Part shown: positions 4,034 through 59,039 of the stretch, one piece after another
Numbering within the stretch: position 1 is the first letter of the stretch
Layout: each line of letters begins with the position of its first letter
Virus record (IMG/VR): IMGVR_UViG_3300028581_000047
Coordinates: 1-59,039 of that record
Length of the DNA stretch: 59,039 bases
Reading direction: 5' to 3' (one strand)
DNA from: a virus
Lineage: Duplodnaviria > Caudoviricetes
Program-made: the position numbers and the translations under genes
Notes under the pieces: generated by a model
What the model saw: the letters and a program-made list of their open reading frames with translations, nothing else
The model's database searches: none
What the model was told of the DNA's origin: nothing

Positions 4034-4846
4034 ATGTCACAAGCATTAACATTTAATGGCAAAACTTTACACCCAGTTTCACACAACAATGAAATGTGGT
4101 TCACTGCGGCTGATTTGTCAAGAGCTTTGGGTTATGAGAAAGAAACTGCTGCAACCCAAATTTACGCCAGAAACAAGGGGGAATTCCTCGAAAGTATGTC
4201 AGTTGTGCTACACCATCAAATTGAGGGAGGTAACGAGCTAAACGGAAAATGTAAAGTGGGCTGCGGCACTCAATCTGAGTATCTAGGCGAATCTCGTGGC
4301 CTCCAGAAAATGACAAGAATTTTCAGTCTTCGTGGTTGTCACCTAATCGCTATGTTTGCAAAGACAGTAATTGCCAAGCAGTTTCGAGTTTGGGTGTTAA
4401 ATTTGATTGAGGGAAAGGTTCCTGAACCTGCGTACGGGTTGAAAGAAACCTTGGCTACAATTTCCGTACACAGTTATAGCGGAATTGAAGTGCTTGAGAA
4501 GAATGACTTTTTCAAGGTATCTCAGTTATGTTTAAAACAGGGGCGGTTTGCACAAGATTTTGTGGGTCAAAAACGTTATAAGCTAATGATGTCAAAATTC
4601 CCTGCGGCAAAAGTAGCGACGCACGGAGCTGAAAGAGGTACTTGGGTTCATAGGGGCGTGTTTGTCCCATTAGCTTATTGGTTGTCACAGGATTGTGGCG
4701 ATTGGGCGAGGGACTTGGTTGAGAAAAGCAATCCTGCCCCCGTCGTAACCAGCATTACATTAGCGGATTACATGACGAAGGTAATGCCTGAAGTTTTGAG
4801 AGCGTTTGGCGTGGACAAGAATTATGCTCGTGGTTTCTTAGTGTAG
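4034..4846 (+). CDS. Bro-N family antirepressor-like protein with KilA-N-like C-terminal region
   Basis: N-terminal WFTAADLSRALGY...RIFSLRGCHLIAMFAKT..AKQFRVWVL; C-terminal GTWVH...LAYWLS. Confidence 0.75.
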   Translation: MSQALTFNGKTLHPVSHNNEMWFTAADLSRALGYEKETAATQIYARNKGEFLESMSVVLHHQIEGGNELNGKCKVGCGTQSEYLGESRGLQKMTRIFSLRGCHLIAMFAKTVIAKQFRVWVLNLIEGKVPEPAYGLKETLATISVHSYSGIEVLEKNDFFKVSQLCLKQGRFAQDFVGQKRYKLMMSKFPAAKVATHGAERGTWVHRGVFVPLAYWLSQDCGDWARDLVEKSNPAPVVTSITLADYMTKVMPEVLRAFGVDKNYARGFLV

Positions 4847-5718
4847 GATGTAGCACCAACTTGTACAGCCTAATTCTGGGCTGTACCCAACTTAAATTGG
4901 AGAGTAAAGATGAGAAAAGAACCTTTAAAAATTCACCGACATGGTGGATTCCTCGAAAGTATGTCAGTTGTGCTACACCATCAAATTGAGGGAGGTAACG
5001 AGCTAAACGGAAAATGTAAAGTGGGCTGCGGCACTCAATCTGAGTGTCTAGGCGAATCTCGTGGCCTCCAGAGAATGACAAGAATTTTCAGTCTTCGTGG
5101 TTGTCACCTAATCGCTATGTTTGCAAAGACAGTAATTGCCAAGCAGTTTCGAGTTTGGGGTGTTAAATTTGATTGAGGGAAAGGTTCCTGAACCTGCGTA
5201 CGGGTTGAAAGAAACCTTGGCTACAATTTCCGTACACAGTTATAGCGGAATTGAAGTGCTTGAGAAGAATGACTTTTTCAAGGTATCTCAGTTATGTTTA
5301 AAACAGGGGCGGTTTGCACAAGATTTTGTGGGTCAAAAACGTTATAAGCTAATGATGTCAAAATTCCCTGCGGCAAAAGTAGCGACGCACGGAGCTGAAA
5401 GAGGTACTTGGGTTCATAGGGGCGTGTTTGTCCCATTAGCTTATTGGTTGTCACAGGATTGTGGCGATTGGGCGAGGGACTTGGTTGAGAAAAGCAATCC
5501 TGCCCCCGTCGTAACCAGCATTACATTAGCGGATTACATGACGAAGGTAATGCCTGAAGTTTTGAGAGCGTTTGGCGTGGACAAGAATTATGCTCGTGGT
5601 TTCTTAGTGTAGGATGTAGCACCAACTTGTACAGCCTAATTCTGGGCTGTACCCAACTTAAATTGGAGAGTAAAGATGAGAAAAGAACCTTTAAAAATTC
5701 ACCGACATGGTGGATTCC
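4183..5718. repeat. 765/766-bp tandem duplication (4183-4947; 4948-5713) with ATTCC microhomology at the junctions
   Basis: Direct comparison: copies differ by 2 substitutions and one extra G at ~5160. Confidence 0.95.
4910..5612 (+). pseudogene. chimeric, frameshifted second copy of the Bro-N gene
   Basis: First 14 codons come from the 5676 gene, the rest from the 4034 gene; +1 frameshift in the G run at 5157-5160. Confidence 0.8.
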
Positions 5719-7391: not shown

Positions 7392-7657
7392 AAGTTTTAA
7401 GTATTGAAGCGTGGGCAGAAGGGTCTTCTGATGAAGGGGAAGGGATTTCATGGACTTGGAACGCCTGGCACATGATTGGTTCAGTTGAGCCTGTCTCAAG
7501 TGAAGAAGAGGCTGTCAAGGCATTTGAGGATTTCTTTGGGATTCCTTTCAATACGACCGAGTATGAAGTGATTGATGACCAATACAATTACGCTTTGTGT
7601 GTAATTGCGGAGGATTACAGACCTATTTATGCCATTGAATACGGCTCGGAAAATTAA
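7388..7657 (+). CDS. small acidic hypothetical protein
   Basis: AGGAG RBS; stop codon lies in the first bases of the left inverted repeat. Confidence 0.6.
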   Translation: MKVLSIEAWAEGSSDEGEGISWTWNAWHMIGSVEPVSSEEEAVKAFEDFFGIPFNTTEYEVIDDQYNYALCVIAEDYRPIYAIEYGSEN

Positions 7658-8034
7658 CCGAACCGAGGGGTCTCAAATCGGGGTGGGGTTGTTGCAATTT
7701 GACCACACCCCTGTCTGATAATTACAAATTCAGAAAAACAGGAATCCAATTTGTCTCGCGGGGCTGGGATAGGCAACAGGGGGATGCGGGTTACAGAGGA
7801 AGTAAAACGAGACAAGCGTCTATCTATTATATATAATTATTATATTATATATATTATATATTAAAGAGGTGGGGAGTGTATCAATCTTGCAACAAGTTGT
7901 TTGTATTGCCCAACATAATCTCCTGCCACCCTCTCACGTCCTTACCTGTCCTCTGCAACCCGCATTCGGCTGGACCCCCCAAAAGTCCCGCGAGGCAATT
8001 TGAATCTTTAACTTTTGGCAAAAATTTATTACAA
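7651..8034 (+). repeat. IR-L: left copy of ~384-bp long inverted repeat (origin-like)
   Basis: Reverse complement of 33864-34247 with about a dozen differences; nearly pure AT core at 7821-7865. Confidence 0.95.
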
Positions 8035-8047
8035 CGAGAGTAACAAC

Positions 8048-8245: not shown

Positions 8246-8311
8246 AGAGTGTTGCCCATTATGACAAGTGGGCAATGCCCTGTGCTTTACAGGAATAACT
8301 TGGAGAATGAA

Positions 8312-14236: not shown

Positions 14237-15733
14237 ATGAAATTAAGCGAACTAATACGGGAAGCATTCCTTCCCATTTCGGCAGACTGGCAGGACAAAG
14301 TGGAGGTAGGTAAAACGCCTTTCGCCCATCAAATCGAGGACTTTAAGTATATGGGTTCTTGTCACCGTTGCGGGATATATAACGAGCCAGGTGTCGGTAA
14401 GACCTTACCAATTCAAGCGTATGGGTTGTGGAGAGCTGGAAACGGTAATCGGGTGGTATATGTTATGCCCCCAATCCTGATTAGACAGTTTTCCCAATCC
14501 CTGGACGTTAATTTTGTGGGTGCAAGAGACTTTATCACCTGCGAAGCGTTTAACGGAAACCCTGCACAACGCGATAAGCTCTGGGCAAAATGGGAGGATA
14601 CAACGTTTCCAAACATACTGCTCGTAAGCTATGTCATGTTCGTAAAGTATTACGAGGCTTTACTAGAGAAAGGCTTCAACTGTGTGGTAGTAGATGAAGC
14701 TACGGCTATTAAATCGCCATCATCAAAGATACACAAGGCGGTAAGAGCTTTCGCAGAAGACGATAACGGGGTGGTGCTTGTTACAGGCACACCTATTGAA
14801 ACAAACGTAGAGGATGCGTATGGTTTCATCAAGATTATTACCCCTGAAGCGTATGGCTCGTACAAGAATTTTGAGTATTACCATGTTGTTAAATACTCTA
14901 TGTTCGTGCCAAGTTCAGGTAAAGAGGTATATAAAACTCAAGGGTACTCCAACCTTGCGATGCTCCACGACAATTTGTTTAGACAAGCAAGACGTGTGTT
15001 GAAATCGGAAGTATCTGATTTACCTCCACGTTTGATTTCGGAGTATCTGATTGACTTGTCACCAAAGCACATGAAACTGTACAACCGTATGGTTAATGAG
15101 CGGATGTTAGAAATTGGTGATGAACTGGTTGACATGACAACGGCTCAAGCATTGTACCAAGCCATGCAGCAGGTGCTTTTAAATCCTGAAAAGTTTGGTG
15201 AGGCTCAACATGACAATGAGTTGTTTGTAGCATTAGACGCAATCATAGAGTCGTTGGAAGGGCAGAAGATTCTTGTTTACGCTTGGTTCAATGCTTCGGT
15301 TGACACTATCTGTGAAAGATACAAACACCTTAACCCTGCCAAGATAAACGGTTCGGTGACAGGGGACAACCGTGAGAACGAAAAACAACGGTTTATTTCT
15401 GATGGCGGCTGCAAAATGCTTGTTGCAAATCCAAAGTCAGGCGGAGTTGGCGTGGATGGTTTGCAGCATGTTTGTTCTCATGTCGTTTATGCTGAAATCT
15501 GTCCGTTCGTCGGTACGTTTCAACAATCAGTAGACAGGCTGCACAGAACTGGTCAAAAGTCAGAATCAGTCAATGTGTATCTTTTAGTGGCAAATCACAC
15601 TGTTTCGGTTAAATTGCGGAATGATTTGATTAAGAAAGATGCTTATCAGGAATTGGCAATGAAAGACAAAAGGTCAATCTTGTCAGACTTGATGGGCGAA
15701 GAAGGGATTAAAGGGTCATTAGACACAATTTAA
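14237..15733 (+). CDS. SNF2-like superfamily 2 DNA helicase
   Basis: GVGKT, VVDEA, TGTP and QQSVDRLHRTGQ motifs. Confidence 0.9.
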   Translation: MKLSELIREAFLPISADWQDKVEVGKTPFAHQIEDFKYMGSCHRCGIYNEPGVGKTLPIQAYGLWRAGNGNRVVYVMPPILIRQFSQSLDVNFVGARDFITCEAFNGNPAQRDKLWAKWEDTTFPNILLVSYVMFVKYYEALLEKGFNCVVVDEATAIKSPSSKIHKAVRAFAEDDNGVVLVTGTPIETNVEDAYGFIKIITPEAYGSYKNFEYYHVVKYSMFVPSSGKEVYKTQGYSNLAMLHDNLFRQARRVLKSEVSDLPPRLISEYLIDLSPKHMKLYNRMVNERMLEIGDELVDMTTAQALYQAMQQVLLNPEKFGEAQHDNELFVALDAIIESLEGQKILVYAWFNASVDTICERYKHLNPAKINGSVTGDNRENEKQRFISDGGCKMLVANPKSGGVGVDGLQHVCSHVVYAEICPFVGTFQQSVDRLHRTGQKSESVNVYLLVANHTVSVKLRNDLIKKDAYQELAMKDKRSILSDLMGEEGIKGSLDTI

Positions 15734-15743
15734 TCTAACAAAG

Positions 15744-15775
15744 GTATACCCCACAAATTGCTTTGTGGGGTATAC
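15744..15775 (+). terminator. perfect hairpin after helicase gene (terminator or processing site)
   Basis: GTATACCCCACAAA-ttgc-TTTGTGGGGTATAC. Confidence 0.55.
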
Positions 15776-15783
15776 TGCCCCAC

Positions 15784-15900
15784 GAGTTTTTAGATTTGGA
15801 TTATAGCAGGTCTCATAAATCTAAGAGCTTAACGTTCTGCCCTTGCCTATTTGGTGCCTGCTATCACCGAGTTCGCAAGGGTTCTATATTTTCGGAGCAA
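15784..15900 (+). promoter_or_regulatory. two-hairpin RNA leader with loop-loop complementarity (copy A)
   Basis: Loop ATAGCAGG (15803-15810) is complementary to loop CCTGCTAT (15857-15864); homologous to 17940-18053. Confidence 0.6.
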
Positions 15901-15904
15901 TACC

Positions 15905-16630
15905 ATGTTACAAACAACAACAGAAGTAAAAACCATGTCTTCTACGGAAATCGTAAAAATCATTAACGACATGAGAGAAGACGGTACGGCGGAATTACGC
16001 CATGACAATTTCATGGTGAAGGTAGTAACTGTGCTGGGTGCAGAAGTAGCCCTAAAATTTCAGGGCTACTACAAAGCAGCAAATGGGAAACAAAATCCAT
16101 GCTACTACCTCCCAAAACGTGAAGCGAATTTGATGGTGATGTCAGAGTCATACAAAGTTCAAGCCGCTGTTTATGACAAGATGGTTGAGTTGGAAACCCA
16201 ACAGGTGAGACCACTTTCACAGCTTGAGATTTTGGGTCAGTCCGTTCAAATCTTAACTGAGCATGATAAACGATTGACAGCAGCAGAAGTTGAAGTAAAA
16301 CACATTTCTGCAAAAGTGGCAGACCTTCAAGTAAACTTACGGAACGGTGTTCCAGAAGGATACGTTTCAAAAGCAAATGCGCTTAGACTTTATGGTTGTG
16401 GGTTGAGCAAAGCAATTTTTGAAGCTGTGATGACCGAGAACGATGTTAAAACCCAACCGTATGTTCATTACGCTGAAGGTCATTCAGTCGCCACGTTTGG
16501 TTATTTAGAAAACGTTATTCCTGGGGTCGTTGAAAGTTTCATCGCAAGTTTAGAACAAGCTACAACGAATCAATGTTATTCACCCACGTTAAACAAGCGG
16601 TTGACCTACAGAAAACCCACATTGCAGTAA
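15905..16630 (+). CDS. Rha-family antirepressor-like regulatory protein
   Basis: MSSTEI...RHDNFM...YKAANGKQNPCYYLPKREANLMVMSES motif. Confidence 0.75.
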   Translation: MLQTTTEVKTMSSTEIVKIINDMREDGTAELRHDNFMVKVVTVLGAEVALKFQGYYKAANGKQNPCYYLPKREANLMVMSESYKVQAAVYDKMVELETQQVRPLSQLEILGQSVQILTEHDKRLTAAEVEVKHISAKVADLQVNLRNGVPEGYVSKANALRLYGCGLSKAIFEAVMTENDVKTQPYVHYAEGHSVATFGYLENVIPGVVESFIASLEQATTNQCYSPTLNKRLTYRKPTLQ

Positions 16631-16678
16631 GCATCACCCTTTACACAACATTCATTTTAAAATAATTGGAGAAGTATC

Positions 16679-17341
16679 ATGGCTTTAAATTTAGTAGGTT
16701 CTACAGCAGCATTCAACAACACTTCAGTAGACGAAGCATTCCCTGCGGTAGTTTCAGAAGCCCCAACAACGTTGGCGTTAGTAGCTGAACCGTCACAACG
16801 TAACAGTGTGAATTTGGCGGATTTAGAGGCAGCAGGCTTTGCTGGTTTGGTATTTGACTGGACTGCCTTCCCAATGATTTCGTTGAAGACAGATGGTCAG
16901 TTTGAGGACTCGAACGGTCAGACTTATGGCAAAGGGTTCGAGTGTAAAGTTATTGGGTCTAAAATCAAGTATGCTCACAGCTTTACAGGTTCTACAAACC
17001 CCAAAACAGATTTGATTTATTCTTATGACAAAATCACTTCTACAAGTGGTAAAGATGTAGTAAGCTTTGAGTCGGATTTGAGAGCGGCAGGGAAAGAAGT
17101 CACTTGCAAAGAGTATCTTGAAGTGATGGTCGAGTTAGTAGCTCCAGGCGAGTCGCATGATGGTGAGTTTAGATTAGTGTCAGTGTCGCCAACATCGAAA
17201 GGTAGATTCTCCAGTCTTATCTTTAAGTTGGTACAAAAAGGGATTAAGGACACAGCTGTAATCCGAATGGAAGTGGGCGAAAAGGTTCGCAACGTTGCTA
17301 ACCCCTTCTACCCTTGGAGTTTCGTGTTAGTCTCAGGCTAA
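16679..17341 (+). CDS. hypothetical replication-module protein (possible ssDNA-binding/annealing)
   Basis: 220 aa, strong RBS, beta-rich; function inferred from position only. Confidence 0.5.
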   Translation: MALNLVGSTAAFNNTSVDEAFPAVVSEAPTTLALVAEPSQRNSVNLADLEAAGFAGLVFDWTAFPMISLKTDGQFEDSNGQTYGKGFECKVIGSKIKYAHSFTGSTNPKTDLIYSYDKITSTSGKDVVSFESDLRAAGKEVTCKEYLEVMVELVAPGESHDGEFRLVSVSPTSKGRFSSLIFKLVQKGIKDTAVIRMEVGEKVRNVANPFYPWSFVLVSG

Positions 17342-17533
17342 CCCAGATGTTCACTGCCGAACAGGCAGCTTAGGAAATAATTCCTGCCCGTTCTTCCGAG
17401 GGTTAAATCGGAAGACTCCCACTGAAGGGTCATAGAGAATCTTTCATTGGTAGTTAAACTGCCAACTAACTGGAACTGGGGAGTTCCTCGCGTTAGGTGA
17501 CTTTCCCTGCGGTAATCTGTGGGGACTTATATT

Positions 17534-17609
17534 GGGTCAGTATCACAAAGGTTCGTGGAGCGTACTCATAATGCGTAGTATGTTGGTTCAAGTCCAACCT
17601 GACCCACCA
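17534..17609 (+). tRNA. tRNA with CAU anticodon (elongator Met or Ile2), encoded CCA
   Basis: Acceptor GGGTCAG/CTGACCC + A + CCA; anticodon loop CTCATAA; T arm GTTGG-TTCAAGT-CCAAC. Confidence 0.9.
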
Positions 17610-17939
17610 AACACACCCCCCTTGTTGGGTGTAAGTAGCAAGGCGTGTAGCGGAATCACGAAAGTCACCGCAGCAGTAATGGTAGAAAAGGCTACGGAGT
17701 TGTGTTCTCCATAGTAACGAGAGTTCATGGCGATAGTTTCCTCTGATTAACTTGCGCCGCCTTTAGTAAAACTCACTTAACTTCTGCGGAATATCGCAGT
17801 CTAGTTCATTTTGGTAAACCTAGATAGAGTGTGTTTTACTAAGGGTTAAACCTTACAGCTTTACCATTAGTATCTCCTGAACTCAAGGGATTTTCGGATC
17901 CCTCTTTTTGAAACGCATTTCTTGTGAGTGCTTTTCAAA

Positions 17940-18053
17940 AAGTCTTTAGATTTTGCGTGTGAGAGCGTTCATAAATCTAAAAACTTAACGTTTACCCTTA
18001 TTCGGTTAGTATCTCTCACTACTTGCTTGATAAGGGTTTTTCTTTTTATGGAG
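17940..18053 (+). promoter_or_regulatory. two-hairpin RNA leader with loop-loop complementarity (copy B)
   Basis: GTGAGAG (17959-17965) is complementary to CTCTCAC (18013-18019); shares TCATAAATCTAA.A.CTTAACGTT and CCCTT/AAGGG with copy A. Confidence 0.6.
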
Positions 18054-18060
18054 TTTCAAA

Positions 18061-18837
18061 ATGTTACAAGTATTTAATTTCGATACCAACACCGTCCGAG
18101 TAGTTATGGATGAAAACGGCGAACCTTTATTTGTCGCAAAAGATGTTGCGGTAGCTTTGGGATATTCCGACACAGTGAATGCAATAAAACAGCATTGTGA
18201 CGAGGGGGTGGTGAAACACCACCCCCTTCAAACGGCAGGTGGAGTACAACAAGTTAGAGTAATTGATGAACCTGATGTGTATTCTTTGATATTTGGTTCA
18301 AAACTTGAATCGTCAAAACGCTTCAAAAAGTGGGTGACTTCGGAAGTGTTGCCAACAATTCGTAAAACGGGTAGCTATGCAATCGTTAAGCCTGAGCATG
18401 ATTTTGAGTTGGCAAAACAAACTGGGCTACTTTCTCCTGCTTATGTTGACATGGCAAAAGCATTTGGGTTTGATGGTAATCAAGCCTATTTGTCAGCAGA
18501 TAAAGCTATTAAGCAAATCACAGGTTATTCTCCACTCTCATTGCTCGGTGCAGAACTCGTCTCACCTGTACAAGCTGCTGTTTTAGTTCCAAGCGACATT
18601 GCAGACAGACTGGGTTTAAAGCGGCAGGAACCAAATAAACTGTTGACGGCTCAAGGGTTCCAGACGAATCACAGAAACCACAAAGATGCTATTTACTACG
18701 AATTGACTGAAAAAGGAAAACAGTATGGTGAGTATGTTGATACAGGTTTGAAACATTCAGATGGTTCACCAAGAAAACAAATCAAGTGGTTCAGCACAAT
18801 TTTAGAAGTTTTACAAACAGAGGCGCTTTCAAAATGA
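18061..18837 (+). CDS. Bro-N antirepressor-like protein with KilAC-like C-terminus
   Basis: FVAKDVAVALGY...FKKWVTSEVLPTIRKTGSY; C-terminal ELTEKGKQYG...QIKW. Confidence 0.85.
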   Translation: MLQVFNFDTNTVRVVMDENGEPLFVAKDVAVALGYSDTVNAIKQHCDEGVVKHHPLQTAGGVQQVRVIDEPDVYSLIFGSKLESSKRFKKWVTSEVLPTIRKTGSYAIVKPEHDFELAKQTGLLSPAYVDMAKAFGFDGNQAYLSADKAIKQITGYSPLSLLGAELVSPVQAAVLVPSDIADRLGLKRQEPNKLLTAQGFQTNHRNHKDAIYYELTEKGKQYGEYVDTGLKHSDGSPRKQIKWFSTILEVLQTEALSK

Positions 18838-24196: not shown

Positions 24197-24952
24197 ATGA
24201 GCAATTTACAAGTTTTTAACTTTGATGCAAACACAGCAATCCGCACATCAATGGTTGATGGAGTTATTTGGTTTGTGGCAAAAGACATGGCGGAAGCGTT
24301 GGAATACCCTGAGTCTAAAAACGCACTACGGCTTTGCAAAAATTCCAATTCGCCCCCAAATGGCGAATTAAACAAAATCAACGACTTACCTCCAGCAACT
24401 AAGTGGATTAACGAATCTGACCTGTATCGCTTGATTATGCACTCAACAAAACCTGAAGCCGAAAAGTTCCAAGACTGGGTGTGTGAAGAAGTGTTACCCA
24501 CAATCCGTAAAACTGGCTCGTATTCTTTTGTACCAGAAGTAAAAGGTACTGAGATTTCTCAAACAGCTATTGCAATGCTTGACCTTGCAAAGGCTTACGG
24601 ATTTGAAGGTAATCAAGCCTTAATCTCCGCTGACAAAGCCACGTTTAAACTGATTGGGCAATCACCTTTGAAACTGTTGGGTGCGGAGCTTATTTCTGAT
24701 CAAGAGCGGCATTTAAACCCCACTGAAGTTGGGAGACGTTTTGACCCTGCACTTAGCGCAATCAAGATTAACCTTAAACTGGCTGAAAAGGGTTTACAGT
24801 TCAAAAATGAAGAAGACAAGTGGATGCCTACTGAGCAGGGAAAAGAGTTTGGTGTCTTAATTGACACAGAAAAAAGACGTAGCAATGGAACACCAGTTCA
24901 GCAGTTGAAGTGGAAAGAGTCAGTTATTTCAAAATTAGGAGAATCAAAATGA
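24197..24952 (+). CDS. Bro-N antirepressor-like protein (paralog of 18061)
   Basis: WFVAKD...AEKFQDWVCEEVLPTIRKTGSY; shares AKAxGFxGNQA..SADKA with 18061. Confidence 0.85.
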   Translation: MSNLQVFNFDANTAIRTSMVDGVIWFVAKDMAEALEYPESKNALRLCKNSNSPPNGELNKINDLPPATKWINESDLYRLIMHSTKPEAEKFQDWVCEEVLPTIRKTGSYSFVPEVKGTEISQTAIAMLDLAKAYGFEGNQALISADKATFKLIGQSPLKLLGAELISDQERHLNPTEVGRRFDPALSAIKINLKLAEKGLQFKNEEDKWMPTEQGKEFGVLIDTEKRRSNGTPVQQLKWKESVISKLGESK

Positions 24953-33833: not shown

Positions 33834-33865
33834 AAGACCCACTGTAAAAGGTGGGTTTTCTGTTT
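33834..33865 (+). terminator. Rho-independent terminator ending the replication module
   Basis: AAGACCCAC/GTGGGTTTT stem plus T-rich tail, immediately before IR-R. Confidence 0.55.
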
Positions 33866-34247
33866 GTAATAAATTTTTGCCAAAAGTTAAAGATTCAAAT
33901 TGTCTCGCGGGACTTTTGGGGGGTCCAGCCGAATGCGGGTTGCAGAGGACAGGTAAGGACGTGAGAGGGTGGCAGGAGATTATGTTGGGCAATTCAAACA
34001 ACTTGTTGCAAGATTGATACACTCCCCACCTCTTTAATATATAATATATATAATATAATAATTATATATAATAGACAGACGCTTGCCTCGTTTTACTTCC
34101 TCTGTAACCCGCATTCCCCTGTTGCCTATCCCAGCCCCGCGAGACAAATTGGATTCCTGTTTTTCTGAATTTGTAATTAAAAAGACAGGGTGTGGTCAAA
34201 TTGCAACAACCGCACCCATATTTGAGACCCCTCGGTTCGGTTAATTT
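33864..34247 (-). repeat. IR-R: right copy of ~384-bp long inverted repeat
   Basis: Reverse complement of 7651-8034; ends 6 bp from the rep stop codon. Confidence 0.95.
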
Positions 34248-34253
34248 CCTGAC

Positions 34254-35371: not shown

Positions 35372-35397
35372 TATGTAGTAATTATTACTCCTACATA
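35372..35397. promoter_or_regulatory. probable Rep autorepression operator
   Basis: TATGTAG-N12-CTACATA inverted repeat containing the iteron core ATGTAG, upstream of rep. Confidence 0.6.
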
Positions 35398-35416
35398 TAA
35401 ATTTTCCAGTAGTACC

Positions 35417-35522
35417 AAACCGATAAAATGTAGGAATGAAACCGATAAAATGTAGGAATGAAACCGATAAAATGTAGGAATGAAACCGATAAAATGTAGG
35501 AATGAAACCGATAAAATGTAGG
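35417..35522 (+). repeat. iterons of the plasmid origin: 4 full + 1 partial copies of 22-bp AAACCGATAAAATGTAGGAATG
   Basis: Exact tandem 22-bp period, followed by an A-rich tract at ~35570-35640. Confidence 0.9.
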
Positions 35523-35677
35523 GTTATAACAGAAAAACTTCAACAAAATCAAAGGCGAGCGGTGCGCTTAAAAACAAAAAACAGAAAAATTTAAAAAAGC
35601 AAAGAAGAAAAATCCAAAAAGTAAAAACAGCCATAAAATGTGTGCTAATATCTACCCTCAATTAACAGGAGACTTTT

Positions 35678-57047: not shown

Positions 57048-58472
57048 TTATTTTGTATTTAAAATTCCAGTGAACGACACGCTAACCCTAAACCATTCAG
57101 GGTTTACCCAACTAACTTCTAAAGCATCCGAGCTAAACCGCGTTAAAGTAATGTAAGAAACCCTCTCAACATCTGAAACTAAAAAACCAGAAGCAAGGGG
57201 AACTTCTATCCCAATTTCTTCTGTTCCTGTGTATTCCTCGGAGGTTATATTTCCGTTTGCGTCTATTGTTCGCTGACTAGAGGTGTAACATAGTGAGGTA
57301 ATCTTAACTATTATAGCAGGTTTATTCTTAAATGCGACTAACAAATAAGGTACTTTTATTGTAGGTCGTACCATATACTTGGCAAAGCCCACATCCGTTA
57401 CAAACAGCCGTTTTGAGCCTGCTTCAGTACCCCCAACAATATCCAAATCATTTTGAAACGTGGGCATATAAAATGACTTAAACTTTCCTGACATTTGAAT
57501 AAAGAAATCACGAATAGAAAACTGACTTCTTCTGCCAAAGAAATCAATAGACCTTGACGTTTCAGACCGATTGTACAAGTCGTATGCCGCAACTTTACCA
57601 CCATAATCGACTACGCCTGATGGGCGAGTTATGGACACCCCAAGATTAGACACACGCTCAGGTTCTAACATGAGGACAGGTAGACCCTCCAAGGTGAAAG
57701 CATTAACACTTGGGAGCGTAGCAGGAATAAAATCATCCATAATTAACTGAATCGTTCCTGTTCCCACAGACCTGTTTAACATGGCTATTTGTACTTTGTC
57801 CCGTGTACTGCCTATCCGTAAAGGCACTACCCATGTCATGTTACTAACATTAAGGCTTGGGTCATTTGCATACACCACGGTATTATTCACTTTGAGTAAA
57901 CTCACCACTTCATAACTCGACTCACCGTTGTAAAACAGGTATTGCGCTGTAGCTAAGTTCTGTAAATTATTTGTTTTGGTAAAAGATTTCATCTCCGCCC
58001 AAATAGGAACTAATATCTTTCTGCCTTGCACACCATAAATAAGGTTTTGAAACGCCTGAAAACGTGTAAACGTAACGAGAAACTCATACTCGTACATAAC
58101 CCTTGGCAAAATGTACAGTTTAATCCTCTGTTCACTCCCATCACGACCTACCAGGGTATCCGTATGAAAACTAATACGCTCGGTAATTGGCTTAACCCAA
58201 TTTGCCATCATGGGTAACGTTTCAGGTTGTTCTGCGTAGACCCTATAATTGGCAGCAAGGTTTTGAGCCGTCTGATACGACCCAGAGGCATCAGGTGTCA
58301 CCACGTTATACGGGTTGCTGCCAATCATGCCTGCAAGAATTGCAGGGAAATCTGTCGCAGTGATACTAGACAAGCCTGTTGTAACGCCAACCCAATAATT
58401 GATTTGTGGGGTAGTTGGGTTTATTCTTAAAACAATCTGGTACCCTAAAGTTATCTCTTGTGCTGTCAGCAT
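57048..58472 (-). CDS. distal tail protein
   Basis: NW..PITERI.F.TD.L..RDGSEQR...PR; follows the tape measure gene. Confidence 0.7.
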   Translation of the reverse strand: MLTAQEITLGYQIVLRINPTTPQINYWVGVTTGLSSITATDFPAILAGMIGSNPYNVVTPDASGSYQTAQNLAANYRVYAEQPETLPMMANWVKPITERISFHTDTLVGRDGSEQRIKLYILPRVMYEYEFLVTFTRFQAFQNLIYGVQGRKILVPIWAEMKSFTKTNNLQNLATAQYLFYNGESSYEVVSLLKVNNTVVYANDPSLNVSNMTWVVPLRIGSTRDKVQIAMLNRSVGTGTIQLIMDDFIPATLPSVNAFTLEGLPVLMLEPERVSNLGVSITRPSGVVDYGGKVAAYDLYNRSETSRSIDFFGRRSQFSIRDFFIQMSGKFKSFYMPTFQNDLDIVGGTEAGSKRLFVTDVGFAKYMVRPTIKVPYLLVAFKNKPAIIVKITSLCYTSSQRTIDANGNITSEEYTGTEEIGIEVPLASGFLVSDVERVSYITLTRFSSDALEVSWVNPEWFRVSVSFTGILNTK

Positions 58473-58476
58473 TGTC

Positions 58477-59039
58477 TTATCTCAAAATTTGTTTAATAGA
58501 TAAACTGTTGCGGCGAACGAATTCTACCAAAGTTTTCTCGCCCGACGCAGAAGATATATAGTCGCCAACATTTCTGTGGTCATCCACCATCACAACCCGA
58601 ATAGACTGTTCTGTGGGGGCAGAAGGGGCTACAACGGGTGCATTAGGTTGTACTCGTGATGCAGCATAACTCATGGGGTCTGCAATACCACCTGTGGCGC
58701 GTTGAATCGGGAATTTGTTGGCAAAGTTCCAAGCATCTAACGTACGCTTACCAATTGCTTTTGTTGTCTTCGCATTTAAAACATACTCTCCGTTTGACAA
58801 CCTAGCAGGGATGGAATCGGATGTGGTCGTTCCAGGTCCTGTGATGTAACCGTGTTGCGTTTGGTCAGGGTAAAGCTGGGTTGTGCCTGTCTTCGGGTCA
58901 TAGATGGGGGTACCACCCGTTGAATAGTTTTGGACATTTGCACTCTCAACATTTCCACCCGTTGAATAGTTTTGGACATTTGCACTCTCAACATTTCCAC
59001 CCGTTGAATAGTTTTGGACATTTGCACTCTCAACATTTC
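58477..59039 (-). CDS. tape measure protein, C-terminal part (5' end beyond the window)
   Basis: Open frame through the window end; GPGTTTSDSIPARLSNGEYVLNA motif. Confidence 0.8.
   Translation of the reverse strand, partial: NVESANVQNYSTGGNVESANVQNYSTGGNVESANVQNYSTGGTPIYDPKTGTTQLYPDQTQHGYITGPGTTTSDSIPARLSNGEYVLNAKTTKAIGKRTLDAWNFANKFPIQRATGGIADPMSYAASRVQPNAPVVAPSAPTEQSIRVVMVDDHRNVGDYISSASGEKTLVEFVRRNSLSIKQILR
58913..59039. repeat. exact 42-bp tandem repeat, 3 copies, running to the window end
   Basis: CCACCCGTTGAATAGTTTTGGACATTTGCACTCTCAACATTT; encodes NVESANVQNYSTGG in the tape-measure frame. Confidence 0.9.

Follow-up and report, generated by a model that had tools for sequence, protein, structure and literature searches.

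The window analyzed here, a 59-kb virus record (IMGVR_UViG_3300028581_000047) with an estimated completeness of 69%, carries two copies of a structured RNA leader that is most likely, judging from its sequence, a coded kissing-loop attenuator heading phage accessory and early transcription units. Both copies lie on the plus strand and run from the base of a first stem to a GGAG ribosome-binding site (RBS), with element 1 (15784..15897) ahead of a Rha/Ant-like gene and element 2 (17940..18053) ahead of a Bro-N gene. The architecture consists of a 5' hairpin with the almost invariant stem UUUAGAUU/AAUCUAAA, a linker, a GC-based hairpin followed by a U-tract, and then the RBS and start codon. The apical loops of the two hairpins are Watson-Crick complements of each other, that of the terminator hairpin being 6-8 nt long. 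We found 18 copies of this leader in 14 viral or metagenome-assembled genome (MAG) records, representing 17 distinct sequences, and these carry 13 distinct matched loop pairs. This is a structured RNA family with exceptionally clear loop-loop covariation, and it is uncatalogued.

Covariation was counted on a 17-sequence alignment (A5) across stem 1, stem 2 and the loop-loop helix. Over the whole structure 90.0% of cells are paired, compared with 70.9% in shuffles and at most 51.4% when the partners are slid, and none of 500 shuffles reached either the observed pairing or the observed covariation score. Within the kissing helix (columns 20-27 with 86-93) both sides have changed in all eight pairs, and 83.6% of cells are paired despite a few rows that are gapped or one column off register. 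Stem 2 has changed on both sides in 9 of its 13 pairs. The core of stem 1 is invariant in 17/17 sequences except for a single C-to-U change, which gives a G-U pair. A 14-sequence alignment agrees with this result, with 98.9% of helix 1 cells paired. The first-pass annotation of the window had proposed a conserved loop-loop pairing from the two copies there, and the 13 compensated loop pairs bear this out; in the homologs collected with a covariance model, loop complementarity proved to be retained, not lost.

Two of the loop pairs occur in three copies each (CTACCAC/GTGGTAG and GGACGAG/CTCGTCC) and one in two copies (CTACGAC/GTCGTAG). The others were each found once: the two of the window, ATAGCAGG/CCTGCTAT and GTGAGAG/CTCTCAC, together with GTCGCAG/CTGCGAC, GTGGAAG/CTTCCAC, CTGCTAGA/TCTAGCAG, GTACGAG/CTCGTAC, GGTAAG/CTTGCC (with one G-U pair), GGCTAG/CTAGCC, GGTCAAG/CTTGACC and GGGCAAG/CTTGCCC. 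In a 14 x 14 matrix of loops, cognate partners are complementary over 6-11 nt and differing codes over 3-6 nt. Loci L183 and L184 have near-identical scaffolds, on which GGACGAG/CTCGTCC in one is replaced by the compensated GGGCAAG/CTTGCCC in the other, and the pairs L065 and L172, and L044p and L179, likewise combine near-identical scaffolds with exactly compensated loop changes. Four records (the window, L044, L174, and L172 with L183) have two copies each, in every case with two different codes, and one code is common to L172, L175 and L174p, which lie in different contigs with different genes downstream. Codes that turn over quickly with compensation, and that are orthogonal within a genome, would suit a putative role in specificity. 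As a separate observation, in two members (L179 1037-1158 and L044 630-748) the 3' part of loop 1 (AAGGTG or UAGGUG) also complements the linker (CACCTT or CGCCTT), which could represent a second contact or chance.

The same observations bear on a rival reading wherein terminated or processed leaders kiss same-code nascent leaders and set termination in trans, as a lock-and-key immunity RNA akin to P4 CI RNA, P1/P7 c4 and the antisense RNAs of plasmid copy control, the codes being specificity groups. A conserved scaffold with hypervariable loops, exact compensation on near-identical scaffolds, two different codes in each two-copy record and the recurrence of one code before different genes in different contigs all speak for this possibility. 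There is also a precedent in P4 CI, described in PMC4825925 as a same-strand, leader-derived RNA that brings about premature termination of its own operon by pairing inside the operon leader. However, a partner in cis would be present at far higher local concentration, the constancy of linker and hairpin lengths speaks for a fold within one molecule, accumulation or processing of the leader RNA finds no support in the sequences, and paralogous copies may have diverged simply by compensated drift. Action in trans is therefore possible in our view, but doubtful. We extend it only tentatively to leader-RNA immunity or incompatibility, in which terminated leaders would accumulate and tune the read-through of their own cassette by code-specific kissing, in the same genome or in that of a co-infecting relative, and stem 1 could be the site where a shared factor, from host or phage, takes hold.

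In element 1, hairpin 1 (15784..15830) forms by pairing of 15784-15797 with 15817-15830, with the core TTTAGATTT/AAATCTAA, and holds the kissing sequence X, ATAGCAGG (15803..15810), in its loop. The linker CTTAACGTT (15828-15836) leads to hairpin 2 (15839..15882; GCCCTTGC...GCAAGGGT), which is terminator-like at -23.0 kcal/mol, is followed by TTCTATATTTTC and displays the complement X', CCTGCTAT (15857..15864), as its entire 8-nt apical loop. A U-rich tail, the GGAG (15894-15897) and the ATG at 15905 complete the 3' end. Element 2 has hairpin 1 at 17940..17986 (stem 17940-17953 with 17973-17986), X as GTGAGAG (17959..17965), the linker CTTAACGTT at 17984-17992 and hairpin 2 at 17994..18037 (ACCCTTAT...ATAAGGGT, -16.2 kcal/mol, then TTTTTCTTTTTA), where X', CTCTCAC (18013..18019), lies within the 8-nt apical loop; GGAG (18050-18053) and the ATG at 18061 follow. 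The strings first listed for stem 1, the linker, stem 2 up to GGAG and the loops are all in place in both copies, and reading the window confirmed that the loops are unlike between the copies and complementary within each.

The stem-1 pattern TTAGATTT-N(10-30)-AAATCTAA was matched at two places in the window and at none in 100 shuffles, and among 105 terminator-like hairpins of the window only those of elements 1 and 2 have a loop complement of at least 7 nt upstream. Shuffling loop 1 matched the observed complementarity in 6/1000 trials for copy 1 and 21/1000 for copy 2. The plus-strand folds, at -42.1 kcal/mol (z -4.25) for copy 1 and -30.4 kcal/mol (z -3.14) for copy 2, both beat all 200 shuffles. 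The linker CTTAACGTT alone is not significant in the window (25 matches at up to one mismatch, with 19.1 expected), and three further exact copies of it there are without hairpins and unrelated to the elements. Covariation at the level of the family removes the remaining doubt that the element is real.

Stem 1 is also a sequence-invariant inverted repeat just past the promoter, and the elements mark the boundaries of variable gene cassettes between genomes G000 and G003. Both features would suit a signal read at the DNA level, either an operator for a dimeric repressor or an inverted-repeat site for recombination or cassette exchange. Yet the two strands are not equivalent: the stems are rich in G-U pairs, which become A-C mismatches on the opposite strand, the U-tract is present on one strand only, and every copy is oriented toward its downstream gene, all of which indicates strand specificity. 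The minus-strand fold of copy 1 is no better than shuffles (z -0.72; that of copy 2 has z -3.08), and covariation between loops ~55 nt apart would be meaningless in duplex DNA. We consider a DNA-level element very improbable.

The geometry of hairpin 2 is uniform across the family. In our survey it measures 38-42 nt in 17/17 sequences, and its predicted apical loop (6-8 nt) lies within the kissing complement in every one of them; the linker measures 13-16 nt in 15/17. The base of hairpin 2 reads CCC(G/T)...GGG, with stem energies of -14.5 to -26.1 kcal/mol, and the calculated energy of the loop-loop duplex ranges from -5.7 to -11.0 kcal/mol. Tails with 5-6 U (such as TTTTTTATT) follow hairpin 2 in 16/17 sequences, that of copy 1 being interrupted. 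Hairpin 2 is thereby a predicted intrinsic (Rho-independent) terminator in form. Its position directly before the RBS supports the earlier suggestion of an RNA element that would control termination.

Sigma-70-like promoters with a score of at least 8 were found in 12/17 sequences, compared with 6.2% of random positions, and in 11 of these 12 the -10 hexamer ends 13-14 nt before the TAGATT of stem 1. An independent scan recovered TGGACA-16-TATAAT (11/12 matches) directly before the L174 copy. Because the -10 hexamer stands at a fixed short distance upstream in these relatives, we place the 5' end of the transcript at the element in the promoter-bearing members, with the ends predicted from sequence. 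In the window, the -10-like hexamer TATACT (15771..15776, plus strand) of copy 1 sits at the family spacing, 14 nt upstream of TAGATT, without a -35 and is a weak candidate promoter. The initial placement of the element thus holds as to a leader RNA, while promoter positions in relatives argue for a promoter-proximal leader and not an internal switch. In 17/18 copies a start codon with an RBS lies no more than ~30 nt past the hairpin 2 stem. This leaves no space for a promoter between the U-tract and the RBS, so that the downstream gene would be transcribed only through hairpin 2, and the element would attenuate if hairpin 2 terminates at all.

That arrangement also bears on whether the leader is instead a stand-alone small RNA gene, whose product is the terminated ~105-nt RNA, with the kiss shaping or masking it and read-through being incidental. 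The 5' hairpin, U-rich linker and poly-U terminator resemble Hfq-type small RNAs. Moreover, the next gene in the one exceptional copy, L171, is ~180 nt away behind its own promoter (TTGACA-N17-TACATT), and the next open reading frame (ORF) in L183 and L185 encodes only 22-23 amino acids. Against this stand the other 17 copies, in which the nearby RBS and ATG without space for a promoter make the RNA necessarily the leader of those genes, and the lack of a convincing trans target in the window, where the sole extended match is 12 nt at 57310 and close to chance level. We find a stand-alone small RNA quite unlikely. The match itself (57310-57321, ATTATAGCAGGT) equals 12 nt of loop 1 of element 1, with ~0.05 such matches expected by chance, and a minus-strand transcript at this site, inside the ORF 57048-58472, would complement that loop.

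With moderate confidence, we propose that each copy is a ~110-nt 5' leader acting as a kissing-loop-gated transcription attenuator. The proposal builds on the structure, its covariation, the terminator form and, in relatives, the proximity of promoters, all of which are observed. Transcription would start a few bases before hairpin 1, judging from the promoters of relatives. Hairpin 1 would fold and display a code of 6-8 nt in its apical loop, an A/U-rich linker would follow, and the terminator-form hairpin 2, with its GC-rich base and U-tract, would bear the exact complement of the code in its own apical loop. Every mRNA of the downstream gene would have to read through this terminator, and the loop-loop helix would set the frequency of read-through by competing with, or locking, the complete terminator fold. 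With codes that are hypervariable yet matched, each leader would answer only its own partner. No ligand is expected, because the kiss consists of 6-8 Watson-Crick pairs without conserved loop letters. Termination itself, the direction of the kissing effect and the modulator are the parts of the attenuator that we infer.

Several observations weigh against such an attenuator. The loops do not overlap the stems, and a simple competition between antiterminator and terminator sequences is thereby absent. Given the equal hairpin lengths and the fixed linker, both hairpins and the kiss could coexist in one compact, stable fold, which would favor a structural or stabilizing role over a two-state switch. 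The terminator of copy 1 is weak, with its U-tract interrupted. The promoter scan found no full sigma-70 promoter at either window copy, and copy 2, L112 and L153 lack a -10 at the family spacing. Finally, the invariance of stem 1 is unaccounted for by a model with RNA alone and points to a contact with a protein or RNA polymerase; stem 1 could also be a signal in DNA, with TAGATT at its fixed distance from the -10 hexamer.

The last of these points is central to an explanation by factor-dependent antitermination. Here, stem 1 would bind a phage or host protein in the manner of nut/boxB or put sites, or TAGATT, read in the non-template DNA strand, would be a -10-like signal for sigma-dependent pausing, and RNA polymerase would then pass the leader terminator as it does in the lambda PR'-6S-tR' system. 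Both the invariance of the stem-1 core, where all else varies, and the fixed 13-14 nt between the -10 hexamer and TAGATT are consistent with this idea. Nevertheless, we found no protein shared across the element-bearing loci that might be a candidate stem-1 binder: in the flanks examined, the largest group of related proteins covers 4/14 records. Antitermination also leaves the required loop pairing unexplained, and the window copies are without the promoter context. We judge antitermination of this kind unlikely.

The family was assembled from pattern scans of public collections, together with runs of a covariance model (R1, trained on six copies) against the loci and the records that contain them. 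R1 scores element 1 at 116.9 bits and element 2 at 119.6 bits. One member lies in a MAG contig labelled as a proteobacterium, and the remainder lie in uncultivated viral contigs. A search with the Rha-like protein led to viral contig L005 (the same contig as L065), where the same leader, with the third loop pair CTACGAC/GTCGTAG, precedes a 66%-identical gene; the corresponding search of viral contigs with the Bro-N protein found no relative. Many pattern matches were rejected. The first stem-1 pattern returned at least 119 loci, and among the 137 matches listed all but 6 rows were AT-rich chance palindromes, while both loci found in viral contigs with the pattern AAATCTAANNNCTTAACGTT were also chance. 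For the last two patterns, R1 did not confirm 4/13 and 7/11 of the new viral loci, which are chance hits. The metagenome pattern scan yielded no member among 19 loci and the genome pattern scan one among nine. Across 151 genomes of the family of G004, the MAG, R1 matched G004 alone and none of the other 150. Searches of the elements with blastn gave no match or only chance fragments among GenBank phages and a single 24-nt chance match among plasmids.

The first-pass annotation could assign no named family, and the cmscan check came out empty as well. Rfam release 15, including its C4, isrK and riboswitch models, gave no family hit at E<=10 over window positions 15500-18300, nor at E<=1 over seven loci with nine other copies; the only rows overlapping the elements were chance-level microRNA and tsr26 matches. 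The motif c4-a1b1 is given without an Rfam accession in a table of PMC2864571, and it possibly falls outside this comparison. Full-text literature searches, with supplementary files not included, returned no description of such an element in phage leaders. In L044 (genome G002, 452-748), ~50 nt separates two members with different codes, which lie on opposite strands, back to back, and have divergent promoter-like hexamers. One copy heads a 36-amino-acid Rha-N-like ORF followed by an HNH-like gene, and the other heads a 67-amino-acid membrane-like ORF.

What the leaders precede is variable. The Rha/Ant-like gene headed by element 1 (15905..16630, plus strand, 241 amino acids) matches the PHROG family of the anti-repressor Ant (phrog_63, 1.1e-12) and has no Pfam hit; the Phage_pRha matches of its L153 and L065 homologs are below cut-off. 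The Bro-N gene headed by element 2 (18061..18837, plus strand, 258 amino acids; Pfam Bro-N, 3.7e-24), in synteny with G003, is the first of a gene run that reaches ligase and DNA polymerase A. The plus-strand replication block of the window comprises primase, SNF2 helicase, ligase, DNA polymerase A, exonuclease and SbcCD genes. Four antirepressor-like genes are present in the window (AntA/P63C at 8249, Rha/Ant-like at 15905, and Bro-N at 18061 and 24198), and the leader precedes only those at 15905 and 18061. The AntA gene at 8249 has no such leader, and the upstream region of the Bro-N gene with its ATG at 24198 was rejected as a member, having a plain terminator, a 6-nt loop match at -57 that lies outside any hairpin and a fold z of -1.41.

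Elsewhere in the family, a gene of the Rha family or the Rha-like Ant family follows L153, L065, L175 and L174+, as it does element 1; L172 shares a downstream Bro-N gene with element 2; L176 precedes an SNF2-type helicase; and the remaining copies precede short or unknown proteins. The link to antirepressors drawn in the first pass thus stands for both window copies, but Rha, Bro-N or Ant genes with Pfam or PHROG support lie directly downstream in only 7/18 copies. The suggestion that the element travels with genes fared better: leader and Rha-like gene recur as a unit in three unrelated contexts (the window, L153 and L065). L172 and L175 carry the same leader with different downstream genes. 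G003, a relative of the window phage (72% identity in the helicase and 65% in DNA polymerase A), has element 2 at the syntenic place before its polymerase unit, with another code and then a 153-amino-acid ORF that replaces Bro-N and ligase. G003 lacks both element 1 and the Rha-like gene, and their place is taken by an HU-like gene that has a simple CCCTTGAG/CTCAAGGG hairpin. Because downstream genes differ among relatives in this manner, the leader is one of variable accessory cassettes and not of antirepressors as such.

Other features of these genomes lie around the leaders. Between the two window elements, a single type I-F CRISPR repeat (17349-17376, plus strand; Rfam CRISPR-DR4, 45.1 bits) follows a 220-amino-acid ORF and precedes a tRNA-Met (CAT; 17534-17609, plus strand), at whose syntenic place G003 has several tRNA-like stretches. 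No second copy of the repeat is present in the window at up to three mismatches, and it is similar to solitary repeat units that have been proposed as RNA anti-CRISPRs. A 394-nt inverted repeat (7646-8039 / 33859-34252, 95% complementary), each arm of which contains a 63-nt hairpin, brackets the 25.8-kb replication block with both leaders; it could reflect a segment capable of inversion, a duplication of regulatory regions or an effect of assembly. At the switch from plus- to minus-strand genes, six tandem 22-nt units (AAACCGATAAAATGTAGGAATG; 35395-35559) are iteron-like and may mark a replication origin. The window also contains a tandem duplication of ~765 nt (4178-5454, 98-100% identical) and, at the end of the record (58913-59039), three exact tandem repeats of 42-43 nt. 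Upstream of the G003 leader (L112 2913-3262), three copies of a ~30-nt motif, CTCCAGCTTGCAGAGGTTAAA(T/C)GCAAGCA, surround a small ORF and may represent a phage-specific regulatory repeat.

By analogy, the guanidine-IV riboswitch appears to be among the closest known systems, together with P4 CI and P1 c4, two RNAs derived from leaders. Like the phage leader, guanidine-IV (the mepA motif) has two hairpins in a 5' leader with kissing loops, the second being the terminator, and the account in PMC11611296 describes how the kiss between first hairpin and terminator hairpin competes with and hinders the terminator stem, giving read-through. The two differ in that the guanidine-IV kiss requires guanidine, whereas the phage leader pairs 6-8 contiguous nucleotides of hypervariable loops, with 13 codes. 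Conserved loop nucleotides are a feature of guanidine-IV, a ligand pocket in the phage leader is not plausible, and the genes and hosts of guanidine-IV differ from the phage accessory genes headed here. Neither the guanidine-IV nor the other riboswitch models of Rfam hit the elements in the searches given above.

P4 CI shares with the phage leader same-strand complementarity inside its own leader (seqB with seqA/seqC). Its targets are two linear sites, one on either side of its own sequence, and processing sets it free, whereas the phage leader makes a single pairing of two apical loops, with the tip of an intrinsic terminator as target; the same Rfam searches gave no isrK (RF01394) or CI-like hit. 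The c4 RNA of P1/P7 (immI: c4-icd-ant; RF01695) is likewise an antisense RNA from the same strand as its target; it lies in an antirepressor operon leader, behind a constitutive promoter. In the annotation of the P1 record, short boxes a' and b' pair with a2 and b2, with b2 just upstream of the icd start. Specificity differs between P1 and P7 through compensated changes. Unlike P1 c4, a 77-nt RNA with two boxes closed by a long 5'/3' stem, the phage leader has no closing stem and a single box directed at a terminator loop that lies 30-40 nt ahead of the RBS. A search of P1 immI with R1 was negative (best overlapping hit 3.9 bits, E 5.7), and the Rfam C4 model (RF01695) had no hit in either search. 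The leader does have the c4-type trait of same-strand complementarity in the leader of an antirepressor-type operon, which indicates a similar way of working and not membership.

Among plasmid systems, ColE1 RNA I/II, R1 CopA/CopT and the attenuation systems of pT181 and pIP501 use fully complementary apical loops of 6-8 nt as specificity determinants, which diversify into incompatibility groups, and in pT181 and pIP501 the outcome of kissing is terminator formation. Plasmid antisense RNAs are made from the opposite strand and act in trans, whereas both loops of the phage leader are on one transcript.

If these sequence-based predictions hold, a new class of leader RNA, a ligand-free and sequence-coded kissing-loop attenuator, would be added to the known means of phage expression control. 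The genes that it heads are mobile and accessory (Rha, Bro-N and others), and little is understood of how they are regulated. With 13 matched codes, a single scaffold constitutes a natural test of how short loop-loop helices set specificity, and the codes could serve synthetic transcription control as ready orthogonal parts. Should the leader act in trans as well, related phages would have a new kind of immunity or incompatibility based on RNA. Dosage control and self/non-self recognition would then come with every mobile promoter-leader-gene cassette, as a programmable RNA lock-and-key class separate from c4 and CI.

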